Assembly (NCBI GenBank): GCA_013375475.1
Contig: JABXKD010000011.1
Location: 1-61,055 of the forward strand
Reading direction: 5' to 3'
Origin: Promethearchaeota archaeon
GTDB taxonomy: Archaea; Asgardarchaeota; Lokiarchaeia; Sigyniarchaeales; SOKP01
DNA: 61,055 bases
Part shown: piece after piece, positions 33,038 through 46,169 of the stretch
Layout of the letters: every line of letters starts with the position of its first letter
Position numbering within the stretch: position 1 is the first letter of the stretch
Notes under the pieces: generated by a model
Databases searched by the model: none
Told to the model about the DNA's origin: nothing
The model's input: only the letters and a program-made list of their open reading frames with translations
Translations under genes and position numbers: made by a program

Positions 33038-34213
33038 ATGACAAAAGTAAAAAATGTTGTTATGTTAGGATTTGGAGACATGGGAAAAGGAATTGCCCAA
33101 GTGTGCTTAATGGCGGGCTATAATGTTATTGCGGTTGATGTTAGTGATGAAATCATTGAAAAAGGTTTAGAATATAATAAAAACGGATTCGAAAAACTCG
33201 AAGCTAAAGGGAAATTACCCGAGGGGATATCCGCAGGCGACATAATGGCAAATTTAAGCGTAAATAAAGCTCTAGCTGAAGCAGTTAAAAATGCAGATTT
33301 AGTTATTGAGGCCGTCGTCGAAAAACTAGATGTAAAACAAAAACTCTGTAACACAGTTATTGAGAATTCTCCTGATCATTGCATTTTTGCGTCGAACACA
33401 TCATCAATAAGCATAACTGAAATTGCTCAAGGCTGTAATAAACCGCAAAATGTTATTGGAATGCATTTTTTTAACCCTGCTCCTTTGATGCGACTAATAG
33501 AAGTGATAAAAGGTGATAAAAGTTCTGATGAGGCAATGGATATTGGAGTCGAATTTTCAGAATCCTTACCTTGTTTAAGAGGAAAGCGATTTGTCGCTCG
33601 CGTTCTTAAAGATCGTCCTGGATTCATCGTTAACCGTGTTTTATCACCAAGTAGTATGTATTCAAACTATATAGTGGATCTGGCGTATGAGAAAGGAATT
33701 CCATGGGAACAAGTAGACGCCGATTTATCCGGTCCTAATGCACCAATGACTTCGCTTACACTATCAGATTTTACTGGTAGGGACATTGCTTACCATGCTC
33801 AATTATATTACGCTGAGAAACTTTCTCCTGATTTTAAACCGGGCAATGTTTTAAAGATGCAAGTCAAAGAAGGGAAATTGGGAAAAAAAACAGGTCAAGG
33901 GTTCTATGATTGGTCTCAAGGACGACCACAACCAGATCTTTCTAAAAAAGCTGGCTTAGTGAACCGTTTAGTATTCGGAGCTATCAGTGCTAACGAGGGA
34001 TGTAGAATATTAGAAGAAGGTGTCGTTTCTAGTTGGAGCGTTATAGATGAGGCGATATTAGCAGGTATGAACTTTCCAGGGCCAATGAAATTCGCAACTG
34101 AACACTACGAAGAAATGGCTAAACTTTTAGAGGAATATTCTGAGAAGTTGCAAAAACCATATTTGAAACCATGCGAATTATTAAAAACTGGAAAATTTGT
34201 TGATATGGTTTAA
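33038..34213 (+). CDS. 3-hydroxyacyl-CoA dehydrogenase (NAD-binding domain + duplicated C-terminal domain)
   Basis: GFGDMG, EAVVE, ASNTSS, GMHFFNP, PGFIVNR, GKKTGQGFY. Confidence 0.93.
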   Translation: MTKVKNVVMLGFGDMGKGIAQVCLMAGYNVIAVDVSDEIIEKGLEYNKNGFEKLEAKGKLPEGISAGDIMANLSVNKALAEAVKNADLVIEAVVEKLDVKQKLCNTVIENSPDHCIFASNTSSISITEIAQGCNKPQNVIGMHFFNPAPLMRLIEVIKGDKSSDEAMDIGVEFSESLPCLRGKRFVARVLKDRPGFIVNRVLSPSSMYSNYIVDLAYEKGIPWEQVDADLSGPNAPMTSLTLSDFTGRDIAYHAQLYYAEKLSPDFKPGNVLKMQVKEGKLGKKTGQGFYDWSQGRPQPDLSKKAGLVNRLVFGAISANEGCRILEEGVVSSWSVIDEAILAGMNFPGPMKFATEHYEEMAKLLEEYSEKLQKPYLKPCELLKTGKFVDMV

Positions 34214-34254: not shown

Positions 34255-35091
34255 TTATTTACCTGTAAATTTAGGTTTTCTCTTTTCTAAAAATGCTGTC
34301 ACACCTTCGGTAACATCTTCGGATTGCGAATTAACGGCATAACCCAAATGTTCAAATTGAAGCCCAACATTTAGTGGTACTTGAGTTCCATAATCAATCG
34401 CTTTTTTTATAACAAAAAGGCTTTTTGTGGCTGCGTTTCCTAACCAAGTTGCTTTTTCATGCACTAAATCTTCGAAATCATCATTATCGACCAAGTATGA
34501 TACTAATCCCCAATCATACAATACTTCAGCTGAATAATGCTCACCGAAATAAATCATGGTTTTAGTTCTTATTTTACCTAAAGTTCTGATTAGTCTCTGT
34601 GTTCCTCCATTGAAGGGAGCGATTCCCCGTTTAATTTCTGGAAAACCAAATGTAGAGCGCTTTGATGCTATAACAATATCGCATACAAGTACTAGTTCAA
34701 ATCCACCACCTAAAGCATAACCATCTACAGCAGCTATGATGGGTTTGGGAAATTTCTCTATTGAATCATAGTACTTATGTCTTAAATGCATTGCATGACT
34801 CATATCCATTAAATTACTTGGATCAACATCAGGATGCCTACGAGCTGATAAATCAGCGCCGGCAGAAAAGGCTGGTTTTTTAACGAAATCTTTACTACCT
34901 CTCAAAACCACGCATCTAACCGATTTATCTAATTCCATCGATTCAAAAGCATCAGCAATCTCTTTTAAGGTTTTATTTTGCAACGCATTTAATCTCTCTG
35001 GACGATTAATTGATATTACTGCGTAATTTCCCTCATCCACTTTATCTATTATAATATGTTCAAATTTTAATTCTGACACTTCAAATTTCAC
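34255..35091 (-). CDS. Enoyl-CoA hydratase/isomerase (crotonase)
   Basis: INRPERLNAL, FSAGADL, GGGFEL, FPEIKRG, AFLEKRKPKF. Confidence 0.92.
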   Translation of the reverse strand: MKFEVSELKFEHIIIDKVDEGNYAVISINRPERLNALQNKTLKEIADAFESMELDKSVRCVVLRGSKDFVKKPAFSAGADLSARRHPDVDPSNLMDMSHAMHLRHKYYDSIEKFPKPIIAAVDGYALGGGFELVLVCDIVIASKRSTFGFPEIKRGIAPFNGGTQRLIRTLGKIRTKTMIYFGEHYSAEVLYDWGLVSYLVDNDDFEDLVHEKATWLGNAATKSLFVIKKAIDYGTQVPLNVGLQFEHLGYAVNSQSEDVTEGVTAFLEKRKPKFTGK

Positions 35092-36665: not shown

Positions 36666-38981
36666 ATGGAAAATCAAGAAGAAATGCAAGAAGAAGATGA
36701 TGTAAAAATTATTAGAACTACTTCTGCTTTTGATTGTGGAGGTCGCTGTCCCTTAAGGTTCCATGTTAAAGATGGAAAAATTATAAGAGTAGAAGGTGAC
36801 GATTCTGCAGATTCTGACAAGCAGCTAAGGACATGTATAAGGTGCAGGGCAATCAGACAGTACATTTACCATCCAGAAAGATTGAGATATCCGCTGAAAA
36901 GAGCTGGTCCTAAGGGTTCAGGAAAATTTGAAAGGATTTCATGGGATGAAGCTTACGACACTATCACAAAGAAATTAAAGGAAACAATAGAGAAGTATGG
37001 AAACCAAGCTATCTTCAATATAGCTAACGGCGGTTATTTTGGAGCATTACATGGCGCTGCTGTAGCTTATGCAAGGTTATTTGCTTCAATTGGTGGATTT
37101 ACAACAACATATGGTAATATATCTTCCCAAGGAGCGATTTTTGGAACCCAAGCTTCTTATGGTTTTGGTCAGATATTCGTAGGGAATAGCCGAGAAGATT
37201 GGCTGAACTCAAAATTAATTATATGCTGGGGTTGGGACCCTGCTCGCCAAATATCAGGGACAAATACGTTGTGGTGGTTAATAAAAGCTAAAGAAAATGG
37301 CACTAAAGTAATTGTTATCGATCCACGCTATTCAGACACTGCTTTAGTGGTAGCTGATCAATGGATTCCAATCATACCTGGAACTGATACAGCGATGATG
37401 GCAGCGGTAGCTCACGTAATACTTAAAGAAAATTTACAAGATCAAGAGTTTCTTGATAAATTTACTCATGGATTTGATAAATATAGAGAATATGTTATGG
37501 GCGAGGAAGATGGAATTCCAAAAACACCTGAATGGGCTGAGAAAATATGTGGTGTAAAAGCTTCTGTTATTGAAGATCTAGCTCGTGAATATGCTACCAC
37601 AAAACCGGCAGCATTAGAAGATTGCCAAGGTCCCGCTCGTTCAGCAATGGGAGGACAATACAATCGAGGCGCCATTACGCTTTCAGCAATGACGGGAAAT
37701 ATTGGAAAGCCAGGTGGAAGCGCTTGTGGTGGACTTCATGGGATTCCGATAGGCCATATGTTTAGAAGTGCTATGATTCCTCCGGGTGCTAATAAAGCTT
37801 ACCCAAAAGGTAAGTCTTTAAGAGGAAATATTAATCCAAGAGATCGTTTAGGTACAAAAGTCCATGTAAATAAAGTTTTTGACGCAATACTTAAAGGGAA
37901 ATCAGGAGGATATCCTGCTGACGTGAAATTTGTATGGTTTTCAGTTTGTGATTTTGTAAATCAACTTGGAAACACAAACAAGGCCGCAGAGGCTATGAGT
38001 CGGGAAGATTTATTTACAGTTGTTCCAGAACTATGGTTAACGCCTACTGCGCAATATGCTGATATCGTCCTACCAGTAACTGGATTTTCGTCGAGAACTG
38101 ATCTTACAAGACCTTGGCCTTCAGGTCCTTACTTTGGCCATATGAATAAGGCAATTGAACCCATCGGTGAATGTAAGGATGATCTTCTGATCGCAGAAGA
38201 ATTAGCTGAAAGACTAGGCATAAAAAACTTTAAAAGAGACGAACTTCTTGAACTCTTTTTACAAAATCCCCAACTTGCACCAGCAAAACCATTATTAGAA
38301 AAATACGAGGATGTAAATGACAAATGGCTTCGCTTACTTGCGGTTATGTCTGACGATGTTAGAAATAATGTAAAAGATTACGATAAATATAGGGAAAAAG
38401 GAGTTCAAAGAGTAAAATTGAAAGAACCCTATGTTGCATTCAAAAAGAACATAGACGATATCGAAAAAAATCCATTCGCAACACCATCAAAAAAGATTGA
38501 AATCTATTCTGATCAGATTGCAAGCTGGAATAATCCGTTATGTCCGCCGATTGCAAAATATATACCTACTTGGGAAAATCGTGAAGATCCACTTGTAGAG
38601 AAATATCCACTTCAGATGATCTCACCTCATCCACGACAACGGGTACATTCTGAATTATATAAAATAGAATGGCTCATGGAGGCAATACCTCATCGTATGT
38701 GGATAAATCCAGTTGATGCGGAATCTAGAGATATTAGAAACGGTGATATGTGTTTAGTCTTCAACGATAGAGGAACGGTAGCAATAGAAGCTTTTGTCAC
38801 AAAAAGAATTATTCCAGGAGTTGTTTGTATTTACGAAGGAGCGTGGTATAATCCAGATGAAAATGGAATCGACAGAGGTGCATGCGCAAATACGCTTACT
38901 AAGGATGCAATGAGTGAGGGAGGCGCAGCTGCGTTAAAAACATGTCTAGTTCAAGTGAAAATAGAAAAAGGAGGCGCCTGA
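36666..38981 (+). CDS. dmsA: DMSO-reductase-family Mo/W-bisPGD catalytic subunit (DmsA-like), no Tat leader
   Basis: SAFDCGGRC..C (FS0 variant), RLRYPLKR, FERISWDEA, YGNISS (Ser ligand region), PGTD, KTPEWA, RVHS, GAWY. Confidence 0.88.
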   Translation: MENQEEMQEEDDVKIIRTTSAFDCGGRCPLRFHVKDGKIIRVEGDDSADSDKQLRTCIRCRAIRQYIYHPERLRYPLKRAGPKGSGKFERISWDEAYDTITKKLKETIEKYGNQAIFNIANGGYFGALHGAAVAYARLFASIGGFTTTYGNISSQGAIFGTQASYGFGQIFVGNSREDWLNSKLIICWGWDPARQISGTNTLWWLIKAKENGTKVIVIDPRYSDTALVVADQWIPIIPGTDTAMMAAVAHVILKENLQDQEFLDKFTHGFDKYREYVMGEEDGIPKTPEWAEKICGVKASVIEDLAREYATTKPAALEDCQGPARSAMGGQYNRGAITLSAMTGNIGKPGGSACGGLHGIPIGHMFRSAMIPPGANKAYPKGKSLRGNINPRDRLGTKVHVNKVFDAILKGKSGGYPADVKFVWFSVCDFVNQLGNTNKAAEAMSREDLFTVVPELWLTPTAQYADIVLPVTGFSSRTDLTRPWPSGPYFGHMNKAIEPIGECKDDLLIAEELAERLGIKNFKRDELLELFLQNPQLAPAKPLLEKYEDVNDKWLRLLAVMSDDVRNNVKDYDKYREKGVQRVKLKEPYVAFKKNIDDIEKNPFATPSKKIEIYSDQIASWNNPLCPPIAKYIPTWENREDPLVEKYPLQMISPHPRQRVHSELYKIEWLMEAIPHRMWINPVDAESRDIRNGDMCLVFNDRGTVAIEAFVTKRIIPGVVCIYEGAWYNPDENGIDRGACANTLTKDAMSEGGAAALKTCLVQVKIEKGGA

Positions 38982-38983
38982 AA

Positions 38984-40984
38984 ATGCAAGTAGGATTTTA
39001 TTTTAACCAAACAAGATGTACTGGTTGTAATGCTTGTAGAGTTGCATGTAAAGATTGGCATGACCAACCATCAGGTCCCGCTTCATGGATGAGAATCAAC
39101 TATAAAGAAGAAGGTCCTTTTCCAAACATATGTGCTAGCTATCTTATCTCAAATTGCTATCATTGCGAAGAACCTGTATGCTCTTTTGTTTGCCCCAATG
39201 AGGCTATAACAAAGCGAGAAAACGATGGAATTGTGGTGGTTGATGAAGAAAAATGTAGGGAAGATGTTCCTTGTGGTATAATCTCAAAAGAAAAAATGGG
39301 TGCTAATTACTCCTATGGTGATTCTCAAGCACCTTGTCAAACCGCATGCCCAGTTAATCTTCGTATTCCCGCTTACACCGCTTTGATAGCTAAAGGCAAG
39401 TTTAAGGAATCTTTAGATTTGATTAGACAGAGGATGCCTTTACCATCAGTGTGTGGGCGAGTTTGTCTTCATCCTTGCGAAGAAGTTTGCGCTCGAAAAG
39501 AGGTGGATCAAGCAATAGCGATTGAAGCACTGAAAAGGTTTGTATCGGACAATGTATCTGAAGAACTACCAAACCCTATAAAGCAGACTCAATCAGATAA
39601 GACCGCTATAATTGGGGCAGGTCCGGCCGGACTAGCAGCCGCTTATGATCTTATTAGAATGGGCTATGGTGTTACAATTTTTGAGGCATTACCCACTGTT
39701 GGAGGCATGTTATCTGTAGGAATTCCAGATCATCGCCTTCCACGCGAAGTTTTTCAAAAGGATATTGATTACATAAAAGCTTTGGGAGTAGAAATTAAAA
39801 CTAACACAACTATTGATCTCGAAAATGGATTAGATGATCTTCTTAAGCAAGGATATGGCGCTGTTTTAATAGCAATTGGTACTCACAGAGGAATGAAACT
39901 TGAAATCCCTGGTGTTGAATTTGAAGGAGCTTTAGTAGGGACTTCCTTTATGCGGGATGTTAACCTTGGAAAAGATGTGAAGATAGGCAATAAAGTTATA
40001 GTGATAGGTGGAGGGAATGTTGCAATGGATTGTGCTCGCACTGCTCGACGATTAGGTGCTGCTGAAGTCTCGGTATCTTGCCTTGAAAGTTGCGATGATA
40101 TGCCTGCGACAGCATCTGAGGTTGAACAAGCCCGAGAAGAGGGGATACAAATCCATGATTCTCATACATTTACACATATTGAGGGAGAAAATGGAAAAGT
40201 TTCAGGAATAGGATGTTTAGACATCACATCATGTACCTTTAATGAAGAGGGTCAACCTCAATTTGATGTTGTGGATGGTAAAAAACATATTTTAGAAGCT
40301 GATACCGTAATTTTTGCTATCGGACAAAGACCGGATATATCAAATTCTAACAAGATCAAGTTAAGTTCTAAAGGTACAATTGAAGCTGATTTAGAAACGC
40401 AACTTTTCAATAAAGAGGGTATATTTGTTGCTGGAGACTGTTTTAGTGGCGTAGCAAGTATTATTGATGCTATTGCCAGTGGACAGAATGCAGCCTCACA
40501 CATGCACCGATTTTTACAAGGAGATGTCCTTAGAAAAAAACCAATTCCCGTGAGTGTAGTAACTGAAAAAGAAATCGATATTCCTTCAGATACTGTTAAA
40601 ATTGAACGCCAACCAATGCCAAATTTACCCGCAGCAGAAAGGATATCTAATTTCAAGGAAGTTGCAATGGGATATAGCGAAGAAGCAGCTATTGCTGAAG
40701 CTGAACGATGCCTGAATTGTGCAGGACATTTATGTAAGGATGTATGTCCGTATTCAGCGCCTCAATTTGTTGAAACGGAAAAAGCAAAAATGCAAAAATG
40801 CAATTTCTGTGTCGATAGGCATGAAGAAGGAAAACTGCCTATATGTGTAGAATCTTGTTATGCTCGTGCTCTTGATTCAGGAACGTTAGAAGAATTAAAA
40901 GCAAAATATGGGGATATTCAAACGGCCTCAGGATTTGTATATTCTGAAAAGCATAAACCAGCCGTTATTTTTAAACCTAAATAA
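38984..40984 (+). CDS. DmsB-like Fe-S subunit with an inserted GltD/NfnB-like FAD/NAD(P)H oxidoreductase module
   Basis: CTGCNACRVAC, CYHCEEPVC..CP; insert with PCQTACP, CGRVCLHPCE..C, GAGPAG, GGGNVAMD, AGD, ERCLNC; DmsB resumes at CKDVCP..KCNFC..CVESC. GGAGG precedes ATG 38984. Confidence 0.88.
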   Translation: MQVGFYFNQTRCTGCNACRVACKDWHDQPSGPASWMRINYKEEGPFPNICASYLISNCYHCEEPVCSFVCPNEAITKRENDGIVVVDEEKCREDVPCGIISKEKMGANYSYGDSQAPCQTACPVNLRIPAYTALIAKGKFKESLDLIRQRMPLPSVCGRVCLHPCEEVCARKEVDQAIAIEALKRFVSDNVSEELPNPIKQTQSDKTAIIGAGPAGLAAAYDLIRMGYGVTIFEALPTVGGMLSVGIPDHRLPREVFQKDIDYIKALGVEIKTNTTIDLENGLDDLLKQGYGAVLIAIGTHRGMKLEIPGVEFEGALVGTSFMRDVNLGKDVKIGNKVIVIGGGNVAMDCARTARRLGAAEVSVSCLESCDDMPATASEVEQAREEGIQIHDSHTFTHIEGENGKVSGIGCLDITSCTFNEEGQPQFDVVDGKKHILEADTVIFAIGQRPDISNSNKIKLSSKGTIEADLETQLFNKEGIFVAGDCFSGVASIIDAIASGQNAASHMHRFLQGDVLRKKPIPVSVVTEKEIDIPSDTVKIERQPMPNLPAAERISNFKEVAMGYSEEAAIAEAERCLNCAGHLCKDVCPYSAPQFVETEKAKMQKCNFCVDRHEEGKLPICVESCYARALDSGTLEELKAKYGDIQTASGFVYSEKHKPAVIFKPK

Positions 40985-41099
40985 TTTTTTTTTATCAAAA
41001 AAGATTGAATGATTAAATTTCAAAATGCAAAAAAAAATAAAAGGAAAAACTAATTTTAATATAAAAAAACAAATAGATATAAAATTTGGAAGAAAAAAA

Positions 41100-42248
41100 A
41101 TGACAGAAACTATGGATCCAGAAATATATAAGAAATATAAAAAAGCCGCTCAGATAATAAATGGAGCTGGTGGCACTCCTTTAAAAATTGGTGACACGCT
41201 CATTAAAATCTTAAGACATATATTACCAGATGAAGAAGCACTTAGTTATGTTAAATATTTTAAGAACAAGACATCCCAAACCATGGAACAGTTAATCGAA
41301 ACTAGTGGTCTTTCTGAAGAGGAACTTCTACCTAACCTAAATAAGTTGGCAAAAGTAGGATTAGTTTTTAACCAACCTAATAGGCGTGGTGTTATCGTGT
41401 ACCGGTTAATGCCTTTCATTGATGTTGGTGTTTTTGAATACACCTTTATGGGAGAATTAGAAGATAATAAGGAAAACAGGGAGTTGGCACGATTATATCA
41501 TGAATTAACGAGTGGACTTAAGGACATATTAAAAAATAATTACGAAGGAGTGGAGGCGTTTGTAAAAAGAAGGGCTCCAGTTGATAGAACTATTCCGTAT
41601 ACCATTAATAAAGATACTGGAAATGAAATTGAAATTGTAGTAGATAAAACTCTAGAAGTTCCTGAAGAGAAGATATTACCCGTTCAAAAAGTAGAAGAAC
41701 TTGTTGAAAAATTTGATGATATCGCCGTTGGTCACTGCTTTTGTCGCCACCAACAAGACCTCTTAGATAATCCCTGCAAACAAACGGATATTAGAGAAAA
41801 TTGTTTTACTTTTGGAAAATCTGCGCGTTATACTTCAGACCAAGGGTTTACTAGATTAATCTCCAAGGAGGAAGCTTTAGAGATCATAAAAAAATCAGAC
41901 GAGGATGGATTAGTTCATAAAGCTTATCATCCCCATTTTGACACAGCTAAGGATGAAACTAGCTTATGCATTTGCTGTAATTGTTGTTGTGGCCAAGCTG
42001 GACATTATTCTGTTAATGTCAATACAACTAGATATATTGCTCAAGTTAACCAAGAATCCTGCACAGGGTGTGGGATATGTGTTGAAAATTGTCATACATT
42101 TGCGATGAAATTGAATGAAGAAAATGTGGCCGAAGTAGGAGAAAGATGCATTGGTTGCGGCGTTTGTGCATATATGTGTCCAGAACAAGCAATTTCTCTT
42201 AAAGAGAACGAAAGAATTGTTAGGTTAATACCCTCTCGACCTGAATAA
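41100..42248 (+). CDS. Cys-rich Fe-S protein with C-terminal 2x[4Fe-4S] ferredoxin and a possible N-terminal winged helix
   Basis: CFCRH..C..C, LCICCNCCCG, CTGCGICVENC, CIGCGVCAYMCP; ATG 41100 preferred over 41025 (upstream part is a poly-A-derived Lys run). Confidence 0.85.
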   Translation: MTETMDPEIYKKYKKAAQIINGAGGTPLKIGDTLIKILRHILPDEEALSYVKYFKNKTSQTMEQLIETSGLSEEELLPNLNKLAKVGLVFNQPNRRGVIVYRLMPFIDVGVFEYTFMGELEDNKENRELARLYHELTSGLKDILKNNYEGVEAFVKRRAPVDRTIPYTINKDTGNEIEIVVDKTLEVPEEKILPVQKVEELVEKFDDIAVGHCFCRHQQDLLDNPCKQTDIRENCFTFGKSARYTSDQGFTRLISKEEALEIIKKSDEDGLVHKAYHPHFDTAKDETSLCICCNCCCGQAGHYSVNVNTTRYIAQVNQESCTGCGICVENCHTFAMKLNEENVAEVGERCIGCGVCAYMCPEQAISLKENERIVRLIPSRPE

Positions 42249-42315: not shown

Positions 42316-43167
42316 TTAATCCACAATCGCATAAGCGTTTCCGAGTACTACCGGTCCACGATTCGTTCGCATTTGAATTATATAACGTCCATTATCTTTC
42401 CAGCCCTCGGTTGTTAAAGTTTCTCCTGGGTAAACCTCATTTGTAAACCTTGCTTTGAACTCTTTGAAACGGGTAACATCACCGTCGCAAAGACCGTAAA
42501 CTATTGCTCGTGTGGCGTAACCGTACGTACAAAGCCCGTGAAGGATCGGTTTAGTAAATTTTCCACTTCTCTTTGCAAATTCAGGATCTATATGCAAGGG
42601 GTTCAAATCTTGGTTTAATCTATATATGGCAGCTTGATTGTCATTCGTTTTGTACGATATGCTAAAATCCGGTTTAACTCCTTCGGGAGGATTTAATGGT
42701 TCTGATTTTGGCCCACTTTCTCCACCAAAACCCCCTTCGCCAATATAGAAATGAACGTATTTAACATCAAACACTTTATTACCCTCAGTAGTCGTGCCAG
42801 TCATTTTTGTATGAATTACCGCTGCTTTTCCCTTATCAAAGATATTTTCACAAACTCCGATTACCTTTATTTCTCCCTCTCTGGGGAAAGGTTGGTAAAG
42901 TTTAATCATTTGCTCTCCATGAATAAAACGAGAACCATCGATTCCCTTCTTACTATGTCTTGGGAATCCTATTCCGCCAACAATGCAGGCATAACTAGGG
43001 AAAACTTTTAATCCCCCTTTAACTCCTTCATAAACGAATGATAACTCGTCAGGTTGGGCACCAATCCCTAAATTATACAGTATTACATCTTTCCATGTAT
43101 ATTTAAAAGACCGTTCATTAGTTTCTTTTCCTATAATATCTAAATCCAAACTAGTCATTTTTATCAC
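42316..43167 (-). CDS. MaoC-type (R)-specific enoyl-CoA hydratase 2 (double hot-dog, MFE-2-like)
   Basis: DVILYNLGIG, IHGEQ, YRLNQDLNPLHIDP, PILHGLCTYG. Confidence 0.92.
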   Translation of the reverse strand: MIKMTSLDLDIIGKETNERSFKYTWKDVILYNLGIGAQPDELSFVYEGVKGGLKVFPSYACIVGGIGFPRHSKKGIDGSRFIHGEQMIKLYQPFPREGEIKVIGVCENIFDKGKAAVIHTKMTGTTTEGNKVFDVKYVHFYIGEGGFGGESGPKSEPLNPPEGVKPDFSISYKTNDNQAAIYRLNQDLNPLHIDPEFAKRSGKFTKPILHGLCTYGYATRAIVYGLCDGDVTRFKEFKARFTNEVYPGETLTTEGWKDNGRYIIQMRTNRGPVVLGNAYAIVD

Positions 43168-43302
43168 AATTAAATTTACATATTAAATTTATAAAATTTT
43201 AATTAATTTATATCTCGAATAGCATATTAACTATTTCAATTCTGTAGTAGGGCTAAAGAACTTTTTAAATCTCTGGGATCAGTTAATTTAAACCATTCTG
43301 TT

Positions 43303-43860
43303 TTATCTTTTTTGTTTCAAGACAATAGATGGATTAATTTTATCATTATTAAGAAATCCTTCAGCTTCAGCATTGTTTCCATATTTTTCCTGTAATTCTT
43401 CCATTGGTCCGACATCAAGTGCGTACATTGGACACGCTTCCACACATATCGTCTGCTGACCTTTCTCTAACCGGTCTAGGCAAAGATCACATTTTTCCAT
43501 TTTAGCGTTAAATTGATCGCTAAATTGCGGGGAATCCCAAGGACATACTTTTAAGCATTTAAATCCGCATTCATCCTTTCCGATGCATTTTTCTCGATCG
43601 ATTACAACTATTCCATCCTTCTCCCTTTTCATTACGGCGTTAGTAGGACATGCCTTCACACAAGGGGGATCAGCGCAATGATTGCATGAAATAGTTAAAT
43701 AAGCTAGAGATAAATTTGGAAATTTACCTTTTTCGATTGATTTGACTCTAATCCAATTTACAGGACCCGCAGGTATATCGTGCCAATCCTTGCAAGCTAC
43801 AGAGCAAGTGAAACAACCAGTACACCTTGATTGATCAAAATAAAACCCTATTTGATTCAA
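43303..43860 (-). CDS. dmsB: DmsB-like 4Fe-4S electron-transfer subunit
   Basis: CTGCFTCSVAC, CNHCADPPCVKACP, CIGKDECGFKCLKVCP, KCDLC..CVEACP; overlaps the dmsA stop by 4 nt. Confidence 0.9.
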   Translation of the reverse strand: MNQIGFYFDQSRCTGCFTCSVACKDWHDIPAGPVNWIRVKSIEKGKFPNLSLAYLTISCNHCADPPCVKACPTNAVMKREKDGIVVIDREKCIGKDECGFKCLKVCPWDSPQFSDQFNAKMEKCDLCLDRLEKGQQTICVEACPMYALDVGPMEELQEKYGNNAEAEGFLNNDKINPSIVLKQKR

Positions 43861-46169
43861 GGATTTCCCTCCAAATGATTTTTTTGATATAAATTTGCTT
43901 CTACTAACGCACTATTCATAGGAAATGCCCCTCCGGGAGAATATGCATCCTTAGTTAACACATTAGCACATCCTCCTCTATCGATTCCATTCTCATCAGG
44001 ATCGTACCACGCTCCTTGGTAAACACATACCACTCCTGGGCTAATGCGGTCTGTAACTTTCGCAAGAATTCTTATTCTACCTCGATCATTATAGATATCA
44101 ATTAAATCCCCATTTCTAATATTACGGATTGAGGCATCAATTGGATTAATCCAAGCTGTGTGAGACTCTATCTCTTCCAACCATGGAATATTACGAAGAG
44201 ACGAGTGAGTACGTCTTTTGTTATGAGGCGTTATTAATTGTAATGGGTATTTTTTTGTTAAAGGAGAATCATAATGCTCTTCATGACTAAAATACTTAGG
44301 AATTGCTGGCATTAGTGGAATGTTCTTTTCTGCTATGTGTTCGCAATAAATTTCAATTTTTCCAGATATCGTTGGAAAGGCATAATTTTCCGGATCTTCA
44401 ATTTGTTTTTTAAAAGCGACAAAAGGTTCCTCCACTTTAACTTTGTAGTATCCATCTTTTTTCATTTTATTGTAGCTTTTTATATCTTTGCGAGGAGATG
44501 TAAATATTTGTAAAATTTGGTCCTCTGGTAGGTCTAGGAGACTGGATTTGATTCCTAGTTTTTTAGAAAGTTCCCGACATATCTCTAAATCAGATTTAGA
44601 TTCATAAAGTGAATCGATCGCTTTGTTCAGGTAAATATAATAAGGAGATCCAAGCCAAGGAACAGCAATATCGTTTCGTTCCATAAAAGTGTTAGCTGGT
44701 AGGATGATATCCGCAAATTTAGCTGTTGGATTCATAAATTGTTCGTGAGTAACTATAAATTCTAACGATTTTAAAGCTCTTATTCCTTTGTTTACGTTAC
44801 AATATTGATTTAAACGATTGGTACCACATATATAAGCCATTTTTATATCTGCGGGATAACCTCCTTTAGTCCCTTCTAAGATAAAATTGTAGTAGTCGTT
44901 AAAATGTACTCGCGTGCTTGCTGGGTTTGTTCCACCTCGAAGTTTATATAACGCTTCTTTACGAGGTGGAGCGTTGAAGTCAACAAGATTATCCTGAGGT
45001 CTTGGTTTTTTGGGTTTGTCTTTTTCATGAATTTGCTTAATCGGTCCTTCTTTCTTTTTTCCTACTGAACCACCACTCTCTCTGCTATAATATGCCCTCA
45101 TAAAACCAGAGGCATAACCTCCATTAATTCCAATGTTACCAGTAATTGCACATAAAACATTAGCTGCTCTCGAATATTGCTCACCAAATGTTGTTCTCGC
45201 AGGACCCCAACCCGCGATAAGGGCTGCTGGTTTACTTGTAGCGTACTCCCGAGCTAGTTTTGTTATAATTTTTTCTGGTACAGTAGTAATCTCTTCTGCC
45301 CAGCTAGGTGTTTTTGGTTGACCGTCTTCACGTCCAAGCACATATTCTTTGTAAAGATCAAATCCTACCGTATATTTATCAATAAATTGTTGGTCCTGAA
45401 GCTTTTCAGTTATTATAACATAAGCCATTGCTAGCAACATAGCTGTATCAGTACCCGGGCGAATGGGAATCCATTCATCTGCTAATATTGCAGCTGTATC
45501 AGTAAAAATAGGGTCGATAGCTATTAATTTAGTTCCTTTTTCTCGAGCTTTAGCTAGCCATAAACTTGTTCCGGGATCCCAAACAGTATTGGCAGGATTC
45601 CAACCCCACATTATTATTAACTTAGAATTAAGTAAATCATCGCGAGCATTTCCCGTCATCATCGTGCCATATGTTGCCATTGAGGCAAAAAGAGCCCCTT
45701 CATATGAAGGTATTCCCCACATACGAGTATAACCCCCGATTTGGTTTAACATTAAACCAACTGGTGTAACGCCATGAAGCATTCCTTGATTTCCACCCCC
45801 CGGTACGAATAGAATTGCCGAGTTACCATATTTTTCTTTTATTTCTAAAATCTTAGATGCTACATGGTTTAAAGCTACTTCCCATGAGACCCTTTCGAAT
45901 TTTCCTTCACCTCGTTCTCCAACGCGTCGTAGAGGGTATTTAAGTCTTTCTTCAGAATATACGCGTTGTCTATATGCTCTCCCTCTTGAACATGCCCTTA
46001 ATTGTGGTTCCTTCTCATTATCTGTTTCAAGTCGCGTAATCTTTCCATTTTTTACATGTGCCTTGAGGACACAGCGACCTCCACAATCGTGACAACATCC
46101 CGTATTTACTATTTTTTCAGTACTCTCATCCATATCTGCTTTGTCATTTATCATTTTGGATTTGCTCAA
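43857..46169 (-). CDS. dmsA: Second DMSO-reductase-family Mo/W-bisPGD catalytic subunit (DmsA-like), no Tat leader
   Basis: CCHDCGGRC..C, RLKYPLRR, WGIPSYEG (Ser ligand region), PGTD, RTHS, GAWYDPD. Confidence 0.88.
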   Translation of the reverse strand: MSKSKMINDKADMDESTEKIVNTGCCHDCGGRCVLKAHVKNGKITRLETDNEKEPQLRACSRGRAYRQRVYSEERLKYPLRRVGERGEGKFERVSWEVALNHVASKILEIKEKYGNSAILFVPGGGNQGMLHGVTPVGLMLNQIGGYTRMWGIPSYEGALFASMATYGTMMTGNARDDLLNSKLIIMWGWNPANTVWDPGTSLWLAKAREKGTKLIAIDPIFTDTAAILADEWIPIRPGTDTAMLLAMAYVIITEKLQDQQFIDKYTVGFDLYKEYVLGREDGQPKTPSWAEEITTVPEKIITKLAREYATSKPAALIAGWGPARTTFGEQYSRAANVLCAITGNIGINGGYASGFMRAYYSRESGGSVGKKKEGPIKQIHEKDKPKKPRPQDNLVDFNAPPRKEALYKLRGGTNPASTRVHFNDYYNFILEGTKGGYPADIKMAYICGTNRLNQYCNVNKGIRALKSLEFIVTHEQFMNPTAKFADIILPANTFMERNDIAVPWLGSPYYIYLNKAIDSLYESKSDLEICRELSKKLGIKSSLLDLPEDQILQIFTSPRKDIKSYNKMKKDGYYKVKVEEPFVAFKKQIEDPENYAFPTISGKIEIYCEHIAEKNIPLMPAIPKYFSHEEHYDSPLTKKYPLQLITPHNKRRTHSSLRNIPWLEEIESHTAWINPIDASIRNIRNGDLIDIYNDRGRIRILAKVTDRISPGVVCVYQGAWYDPDENGIDRGGCANVLTKDAYSPGGAFPMNSALVEANLYQKNHLEGNP

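Follow-up and report, generated by a model that had tools for sequence, protein, structure and literature searches.

The DNA considered here, called the window throughout, is a stretch of 61,055 nucleotides on contig JABXKD010000011.1 of a Promethearchaeota archaeon (assembly GCA_013375475.1), in which two adjoining genes, dmsA1 and fusB, encode the putative subunits of a molybdenum- or tungsten-dependent oxidoreductase. The first gene, dmsA1 (36666..38981, + strand), codes for a cytoplasmic Mo/W-bis(pyranopterin guanine dinucleotide) (bisPGD) catalytic subunit of 771 aa, which is DmsA/YnfE-like and carries no twin-arginine translocation (Tat) signal (Pfam, NCBIfam and alignment). The second, fusB (38984..40984, + strand), codes for 666 aa plus stop and starts 2 nt past the dmsA1 stop with MQVGFYF; a longer frame from 38942 exists, and homologues begin at MQVGFYF. 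FusB is a DmsB-type four-cluster ferredoxin with an NfnB/GltD-type flavin adenine dinucleotide (FAD)/NAD(P)H module inserted in it (Pfam, NCBIfam, BLASTP and an AlphaFold2 model).

The site of insertion is given by a plain DmsB encoded in the same window (43303-43860, - strand), with which FusB aligns in two collinear pieces. By BLASTP, FusB residues 2-99 match residues 3-100 of plain DmsB (54/98 identical, 55%, E 2e-38), and residues 581-666 match residues 99-184 (40/86 identical, 47%, E 9e-25). Since one piece ends and the other starts within group III of the cluster-binding Cys, the break lies inside one Cys motif. This motif reads EKCIGKDECGFKCLKVCP in plain DmsB, and in FusB the insert, residues 99-581 (nt 39278-40726), parts EKCREDVPCG from HLCKDVCP between Cys2 and Cys3 of the group. 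The DmsB N-part (residues 1-98, 38984..39277, + strand) holds Cys groups I and II together with Cys1 and Cys2 of group III (C91, C97), and the DmsB C-part (residues 582-666, 40727..40984, + strand) holds Cys3 and Cys4 of group III (C584, C588) and group IV (C606, 609, 621, 625). All 16 Cys of a DmsB-type four-cluster ferredoxin (TIGR02951/PF13247), in four groups, are present. The TIGR02951 (DmsB) model matches FusB in two stretches 483 aa apart with 138 bits against a cut-off of 214.1, and FusB shows no contiguous DmsB domain at the curated score. Pfam places Fer4_20 at residues 115-193, Pyr_redox_2 at 206-500 and Fer4_11 at 573-633; the domains of the GltD/NfnB family (PF07992 + PF14691) are recognized with E-values of 2.4e-34 (Pyr_redox_2) and 7.6e-27. 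The best NCBIfam model, PRK12771, scores 458.9, below its cut-off of 516. NuoG and 2Fe-2S domains are absent from FusB by Pfam, and its neighbors are dmsA1 and a ferredoxin gene.

The nested module (residues 99-581, 483 aa; 39278..40726, + strand), delimited by PDB sequence and VIA-align matches, is judged by sequence to be a circular permutant of the NfnB/GltD type, with its last ~40 residues matching the N-terminus of canonical NfnB. It begins with a helical Fe-S domain (39326..39562, + strand) containing C118 and C122, C157, C161, C165 and C169, and K184, which is supported by conservation in 52 relatives and by the Fer4_20 profile, matched at positions 29-110 only. The FAD and NAD(P)H dinucleotide-binding domains follow (Pyr_redox_2; 39599..40483, + strand) and include a second Rossmann motif, GGGNVA ... 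CLE (40007..40087, + strand), located by alignments to 9bov and 8oh5. The module is closed by a segment homologous to the canonical NfnB/GltD N-terminus (40604..40726, + strand; PDB sequence search) and ending RC576LNC579. When residues 535-600 were searched alone against PDB sequences, residues 541-591 matched residues 4-54 of NfnB 4ylf_B (E 1.5e-8), and also 5vj7 (7-58), 5jca (7-58), the GltS beta subunit 6s6s (14-63) and DPD (43-93). The canonical first Cys motif, C-x2-C-x4-C-x3-CP, is absent from the N-terminus of the module, and the missing segment is the one found at residues 541-591. Instead, the module opens with the second half of this motif (C118-x3-C122-P) and closes with its first half (C576-x2-C579), and in relatives of the insert A-P-C-x3-C-P is all that stands at the start, while E-A-x-R-C-L-x-C forms the end. 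A canonical NfnB of the same genome (483 aa, carrying YRR, next to an NfnA-like gene on another contig than fusB) matches FusB in permuted order, the counterpart of residues 544-586 lying upstream of that of residues 118-515 in one 485-aa frame; the order is permuted against PRK12771 as well. Because the first Cys motif is split between C118/C122 and C576/C579, both module ends meet at one [4Fe-4S] cluster, and because its termini meet there the module is able to sit in a loop of another protein. The permutation is the new point of this analysis. An earlier, sequence-only reading had the split motif and its coordinates exactly right and placed the insertion in the third Cys group, which the BLASTP halves confirm; it had also described the insert as a complete GltD/NfnB domain, which holds for the FAD/NAD(P)H folds and the two clusters but not for the order of the parts.

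Proposed cluster ligands and predicted fold

The 24 cluster Cys of FusB are enough for six [4Fe-4S] clusters. Conservation was counted over 52 full-length relatives with 36-82% identity: 21 of the 24 are kept in all 52, C91 and C97 in 51, and C157 in 50. Those kept throughout include C12, 15, 18, 22, 58, 61, 66 and 70 of the N-part and all six C-part Cys. K184, identified by position count in the PDB alignment as the counterpart of StnC K170, is kept in 50/52, as is E368, and Arg251, the counterpart of StnC R239, in 51/52.

Group III is known from the NarGHI (NarH) and DmsABC (DmsB) literature to bind FS4, the cluster nearest the membrane subunit. In FusB, judged by homology to plain DmsB and to relatives of the insert, FS4 would be ligated by C91, C97, C584 and C70, FS3 by C58, C61, C66 and C588, FS2 by C606, C609, C621 and C22, and FS1 by C12, C15, C18 and C625. 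The distal cluster of the GltD part would take C576, C579, C118 and C169, and its proximal cluster C122, C161 and C165 plus K184 or C157. The strongest argument for this assignment comes from a relative, P0145, which has only C-x3-CP at its start and, after RCLWC, a 10-residue spacer followed by a self-contained dicluster ferredoxin; because of this layout, its distal cluster can be closed only by the N-terminal Cys together with the C-terminal CxxC. The ends of the FusB module would tie to the DmsB FS4 by links of 4 and 20 residues.

The full-length AlphaFold2 model of FusB has a mean predicted local distance difference test (pLDDT) of 83.5 and a predicted template modeling score (pTM) of 0.81. 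The two DmsB halves (residues 1-105 and 566-666, with four 4Fe-4S) were also submitted to complex prediction and reached a score of 0.77, compared with 0.00 for the best of three controls; contact agreement between runs was 93% or more, and the pLDDT of the partner was no lower than 79. The mark applied to such predictions is reached by 116 of 157 solved complexes and by 2 of 215 mismatched pairs, a calibration from which the present prediction differs in its custom alignment and riding ligands. The predicted interface brings residues 580-588 into contact with 91-92 and 96-98, and residue 621 with 18 and 22, as expected if clusters are shared between groups I and IV and between both halves of group III. 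The two DmsB halves are predicted in this way to reassemble into one fold. Since four-cluster ferredoxins have been solved, the score attests to likeness with them and could stem from structures memorized by the predictor. The Foldseek and VIA-wide lists are filled by the flavoprotein module and therefore bear on the insert, not on the DmsB halves.

Distribution, partner gene and neighborhood

A word-indexed search with the FusB protein returned 5565 proteins at E<=0.001 among 8000 candidates scored. PF07992 and PF13247 occur together in every one of the best 120 protein clusters (60-100% identity, 88-100% coverage), which bear generic names, and the organisms named among them are Hodarchaeales, Thorarchaeota, Promethearchaeota, Chloroflexota and Deltaproteobacteria. 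An exhaustive search of representatives gave, among its best 150 rows, 8 single-stretch full-length matches, down to 38% identity. The full-length fusion was found in 17 of 72 loci of species-representative genomes, 15 of them archaeal (Asgard) and two from Dehalococcoidales, and makes a conserved family. Both junctions are crossed by a contig obtained from a different sample of the source study, which aligns to 38757-41000 without gaps and differs in 3 letters. A chimeric assembly or gene-calling artefact, a possibility that the sequence-only reading had left standing, is refuted by this contig together with the protein clusters from several sources and the 17 independent loci; its probability is negligible, and no point was found in its favor. 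Short contigs in RNA libraries X9, X19 and X21 map to dmsA1 and fusB with 0-2 mismatches, one over the dmsA1/fusB boundary and one over the C-junction, and hint weakly at expression of the pair; this evidence consists of contigs, and stretches not covered by them carry no meaning. The distribution, with its Dehalococcoidales and Deltaproteobacteria members, fits an accessory gene moving between domains. Horizontal gene transfer was already inferred for 11 DmsA-like genes in Asgard metagenome-assembled genomes (MAGs), in a passage that makes no mention of a subunit of the FusB type (PMC10100899).

An orthologue of dmsA1 lies directly upstream of the fusion in 16/17 loci; the remaining one, L014, has just 371 nt upstream. 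DmsA1 contains the Pfam domains Molybdop_Fe4S4, Molybdopterin and Molydop_binding, and its Ser153 aligns with Ser147, the Mo ligand of the Rhodobacter sphaeroides DMSO reductase 1eu1. The protein was also compared with the formate dehydrogenase model TIGR01591, on which it scores 247.5 against a cut-off of 666.25, and it does not have the Sec or Cys ligand of an FdhA-type enzyme. Its N-terminus, MENQEEMQEEDDVKIIRTTSAFDC, holds no twin-arginine motif. DmsC (PF04976) and NrfD (PF03916) had no matches in the window or in the whole 3.92-Mb genome, a MAG of 288 contigs with marker-based estimates of 100% completeness and 6.4% contamination; the sequence-only reading had remarked on the lack of a dmsC within the window, and the remark extends to the genome. 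In the DmsA tree, the fusion-linked proteins stand in one starred clade (99) of 18 rows, within which two rows with plain DmsB partners (L038, L039) are nested. Grouping the 16 fusion rows into one clade is not rejected by the AU test (p-AU 0.173), and the tree needs 2 state changes for the fusion, which fits one gain and a loss or two gains. The plain DmsBs of L038 and L039 keep an uninterrupted C-x5-C-x3-C-x3-CP.

Downstream of fusB, at a distance of 40 nt and on the same strand, is a gene for a 407-aa Cys-rich ferredoxin (41025-42248, + strand). It follows the fusion in only 2 of the 17 loci (L001 and L010, the two closest relatives), and homologues with 48-50% identity in L051 and L053 adjoin plain dmsAB-maoC-ech-hbd clusters without a fusion; on both counts it is not a conserved partner of the fusion. 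At its C-terminus the protein carries a 2x[4Fe-4S] domain, and its middle is rich in Cys (CFCRHQ..., CICCNCCCG); it belongs to a widespread unnamed family, with an Atlas score of 0.97 to generic '4Fe-4S ferredoxin-type' clusters only. Its Atlas entry starts at residue 26, so the true start may be 41100. A second, plain cytoplasmic pair, dmsA2-dmsB2 (42316-46169, - strand), adjoins a MaoC-like hydratase and likewise has no Tat signal and no anchor gene match in the genome. It stands among beta-oxidation-type genes (hbd, 33038-34213; ech, 34255-35091), in a cluster conserved in L051, L053 and L055. When the window around 36666-40984 is compared with L001:3720-7986, the flanking proteins are 88-97% identical (hbd 97, ech 97, dmsA2 96, dmsB2 91, 407-aa ferredoxin 90, maoC 88), identity falls to 75% for dmsA1 and 82% for fusB, and the dmsA1 of the window is closest to those of L002 and L004 (87-89%). 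By these identities, it looks as if the cassette has been replaced at a conserved locus.

The same type of module is found in other settings. Nested beta subunits of the P0124 type, 38% identical to FusB, have C-x2-C instead of C-x5-C at the N-junction and lie directly downstream of PhsA/Fdh-like MopB genes in MAGs of Desulfatiglandales (Desulfobacterota) and Acidobacteriota (L112:2842-7013 and L088:2883-6917); the nested subunit serves more than one MopB lineage. The alpha gene of L088, which adjoins an MTHFR gene, is frameshifted; selenocysteine was considered for this subunit and rejected, as two open reading frames (ORFs) in different frames indicate a frameshift and not an in-frame TGA. 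In the source genome itself, an 821-aa protein (L074:1252-3717, - strand, contig C256 of G000) carries the same permuted GltD module in an FrhB-like scaffold, with Fer4_20 (191-284) and Pyr_redox_2 (297-601) between FrhB_FdhB_N (75-146) and the end of FrhB_FdhB_C (652-736, profile positions 65-148 of 150), and gives the cassette a second host scaffold within this genome. In two proteins of the representative library, P0147 and P0142 (1108 and 1192 aa), the same GltD module stands fused behind the TPP/POR domains of 2-oxoacid:ferredoxin oxidoreductase-like proteins.

Proposed electron path and alternative explanations

DmsA1 and FusB are proposed to form a soluble, cytoplasmic two-subunit Mo/W-bisPGD oxidoreductase that has its own pyridine-nucleotide port and a linear wire of clusters, and that is most likely an NADH-fed reductase; a probability of roughly 0.7 is given to this reading. 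The insert of FusB would carry the FAD, the NAD(P)H site and two [4Fe-4S] clusters. Electrons would pass from NADH (probably) to FAD, to the proximal and distal clusters and to FS4, and from there through FS3, FS2 and FS1 to FS0 of DmsA1 and the Mo/W center with its Ser153 ligand. The final acceptor may be of the S-oxide, N-oxide or oxyanion type. In this arrangement, the NAD(P)H module would take the docking place of DmsC and the quinol, and the likely physiological role would be that of a non-respiratory electron sink or a detoxifying reductase.

A preference for NADH is suggested by one short motif. As a general rule for Rossmann folds, NADH is favored where the second strand terminates in an acidic residue. 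FusB has C366-L367-E368 (CLE) where NADPH-dependent relatives and the canonical NfnB of the same genome read YRR, and it therefore lacks the NADPH-type signature. The replacement of YRR by CLE suggests NADH, which FusB probably prefers. The two Arg of YRR are described as stabilizing the 2'-phosphate of NADP(H) in NfnI-type proteins (PMC8965080), and the NADH preference that the sequence-only reading had drawn from the same replacement appears reasonable in that light. The same reading had proposed a soluble NAD(P)H-linked Mo/W oxidoreductase: this part is supported, with no anchor gene match in the genome and no Tat signal, with DmsB halves predicted to reassemble and with a module that is an NADPH port into a linear chain in its solved relatives, and the three-subunit, possibly bifurcating form suggested with it is not supported.

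Several observations weigh against the proposed enzyme. The NADH preference rests on a motif rule. The ligation may be swapped, with C118 on FS4 and C584 on the distal cluster; under either ligation, ligands of FS4 and of a GltD cluster are 4 residues apart, so that the two modules are wired directly. The best NCBIfam model for DmsA1, TIGR02166 (dmsA_ynfE), gives 628.6 bits, below its cut-off of 777.7. Tyr114 and Trp116 of DorA align with N121 and G123 of DmsA1 and are not conserved, so that the class of acceptor named above is tentative. The FS0 motif of DmsA1 is altered (window 36723-36845, residues 20-60): its first Cys is Ser20 (TSAFDCGGRC), and an extra C60 follows the fourth ligand (C57-I-R-C60). 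All 14 fusion-linked DmsA proteins of Asgard origin, as well as those of L038/L039, show this Ser20 and extra-Cys form; the two from Dehalococcoidales have a Cys five residues upstream instead (LCTSAFDC), and plain DmsA2-type proteins retain C-x3-C-x3-C. The fusion is also rare, being found in 2 of 40 sampled same-genus genomes (G202, G208) and in none of the 200 sampled genomes of the phylum searched at E<=1e-150. Finally, MoeA_N, MoaC, the MoaA C-terminal domain and MoaE gave no matches in the marker-complete source genome, in a search for families of molybdenum cofactor (Moco) synthesis whose controls matched in 11 of 14 named genomes; MopB gave 7 matches in the source genome. The operon also raises the question of where these organisms obtain the cofactor.

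This last point bears on two further explanations. MoaC is found in 10 and MoeA_N in 12 of 40 same-genus genomes, 39 of which have MopB, and a DmsA-sized MopB match (at least 150 bits in a 740-790-aa frame) is present in 17 of 41 genomes with the source genome included, MoaC being present in 5 of those 17. The missing genes may mean that the cluster is unbinned, that the cofactor is salvaged or that the chemistry is free of Moco. Since neither this genome nor about three quarters of those from the same genus yielded a match to the standard pathway, though nearly all carry MopB, the pair might be a self-sufficient NADH:S-oxide/N-oxide (or oxyanion) reductase whose host is unable to supply the cofactor, the pterin being salvaged from syntrophic partners or sediment, or the chemistry at the altered FS0 being independent of Moco; this is considered quite unlikely. 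That the pair is non-functional or pterin-free in a source organism that lacks Moco biosynthesis would account for the same gene counts and for the altered FS0, but both ORFs are intact and show conservation of the Cys, of Ser153 and of the cofactor-domain residues across phyla; MoaC and MoeA are present in G202, which belongs to the same genus and has the operon too; an accessory cluster may be unbinned from a MAG of 288 contigs; and exactly matching contigs occur, as weak support, in three RNA libraries. It is accordingly regarded as very unlikely.

The direction of electron flow and the number of exits from the FAD have also to be weighed. DmsA1 could oxidize or hydroxylate a low-potential substrate while FusB reduces NAD(P)+, as in NAD(P)-dependent formate dehydrogenases. 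The P0124-type subunits beside PhsA/Fdh-like MopB genes would agree with this, as would the name 'formate dehydrogenase beta subunit' given by JGI to two close FusB homologues, the beta-oxidation-type neighbor genes of the Asgard loci, and the 76-kDa beta subunit, encoded by sfrB2, that is described for the NADP-dependent formate dehydrogenase of Moorella thermoacetica (PMC13040438). Against it, DmsA1 is DmsA/YnfE-like with a putative Ser ligand where formate dehydrogenases have Cys or Sec, and L009, a Dehalococcoidales locus, has a different neighborhood. With E0' around +130 to +160 mV for S-oxide and N-oxide couples, these are thermodynamically excluded from reducing NAD+. An oxidative enzyme is held to be unlikely. 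The bifurcating or confurcating alternative, in which DmsA1-FusB and the 407-aa ferredoxin, or a free ferredoxin, form a three-subunit complex around an NfnB-like bifurcating FAD, draws on the homology of the module to NfnB, whose FAD bifurcates (4ylf_B, E 1.3e-79), on the conserved Arg251, and on the ferredoxin gene just downstream. The occurrence of that gene in so few fusion loci, and of its homologues beside fusion-less dmsAB-maoC clusters, speaks against a third subunit. No NfnA-type gene adjoins fusB, the NfnA of the genome being beside the canonical NfnB on another contig; the sequence shows a single exit route from the FAD; and the proximal ligand is Lys, as in StnC, for which a non-bifurcating FAD is argued, where NfnB has Glu (PMC10482914). 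Such a complex, which the sequence-only reading had thought possible, is judged highly improbable.

For the proposed NADH-fed reductase, a role can be predicted in Asgard archaea and sediment Dehalococcoidia as a fermentative electron sink, or in detoxification of oxidized S or N compounds, without a respiratory chain. The operon would offer a simple route from a membrane-bound respiratory Mo/W enzyme to a soluble, pyridine-nucleotide-linked one: the cluster otherwise turned toward the quinol site receives a flavoprotein cassette, both ends of which have one Fe-S cluster in common.

Comparison with known systems

The complex iron-sulfur molybdoenzymes DmsABC and YnfEFGH share with the pair described here a DmsA/YnfE-like catalytic subunit, Ser at the putative Mo-ligand position, four Cys groups in the beta subunit and the gene order A-B. 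They differ in that the present pair has no Tat signal and no DmsC/NrfD anchor match in the genome, that its beta subunit is split by 483 aa in group III, and that TIGR02951 and TIGR02166 both remain under their cut-offs. The NADP-dependent W/Se formate dehydrogenase of M. thermoacetica and SfrAB of Geobacter, compared by published description, are likewise soluble MopB enzymes with a large NADP-binding Fe-S/flavin beta subunit of similar size (PMC13040438, PMC5736913), but their alpha subunit is FdhA-type with Sec or Cys and they use NADPH, whereas DmsA1 has Ser. AegA and YgfT of Escherichia coli also combine a four-cluster ferredoxin and a GltD module in one polypeptide, and their models NF009408 and NF009451 match FusB, with scores far under cut-off (257.9 vs 1003); in AegA, however, the GltD part is at model positions 233-652 of 659, after the ferredoxin, which makes a tandem and not a nested arrangement. 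With NfnB, GltD, SudA and the N-terminal module of DPD (4YLF, 5JCA, 6S6S, 1GT8), the insert shares the FAD/NAD(P)H folds and the two-cluster helical domain. In canonical NfnB/GltD proteins the first Cys motif stands complete at the N-terminus and YRR is present, whereas in FusB the ~50 residues that would come first form the end of the module, and an NfnA-type partner is lacking.

No description of a flavoprotein nested in DmsB was found in the literature searched, which covers sources other than subscription journals. Searches with the P0124/P0128 loci and the P0124 protein for a nested member of a characterized enzyme, such as M. thermoacetica FdhB/sfrB2 or Geobacter SfrB, gave only generically named MAG proteins, and none of 7 distant nested members is named above cut-off by NCBIfam.

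The best solved matches to the insert, in sequence and in fold, are StnC of the Sporomusa ovata StnABC transhydrogenase and NfnA of Bfu-type NfnABC (8OH5, 9BOV, 9N5U/9N5V). Among PDB sequences, FusB matches 9bov_A (NfnA of C. saccharolyticus NfnABC) best, with E 2.7e-105 over query residues 111-588, with 8oh5_C (StnC; E 1.9e-92, query 107-608) and 9n5u_A also among the best. By VIA-align, residues 107-589 of the model superpose on 8oh5_C with Z 39.6 and a root-mean-square deviation (rmsd) of 2.7 over 471 aligned residues, compared with Z 39.0 (rmsd 2.9, 478 aligned) for 9n5v_A and Z 31.5 (rmsd 2.4, 405 aligned) for canonical NfnB 4ylf_B. As in FusB, the NfnB-like FAD module of StnC and NfnA, which has been termed a 'middle NfnB-like domain' (PMC11829005), starts with C-x3-CP, ends with RCLxC and is nested, in permuted form, in another Fe-S protein, with Lys at the proximal cluster (K170 in StnC). 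In StnC, the FAD is described as a non-bifurcating point of entry for NADPH, with electrons running along a linear chain of clusters (PMC10482914). The host of the module in StnC and NfnA is a NuoG/FdhF-like scaffold with an inactive MopB that works with NuoE/F-like bifurcating subunits; fusB has neither such a scaffold nor such neighbors, and the coenzyme motif in StnC and NfnA is YRR and not CLE. In FusB, by contrast, the host is a DmsB four-cluster ferredoxin and the partner an apparently active DmsA-type subunit. With NuoG-like proteins (StnC, NfnA), the FrhB-like protein of the same genome and subunits beside other MopB lineages in Desulfobacterota among its hosts, the cassette would be a portable NAD(P)H adaptor. 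Altogether, the nesting principle is already known from StnC and NfnA, and the DmsB host appears to be new.

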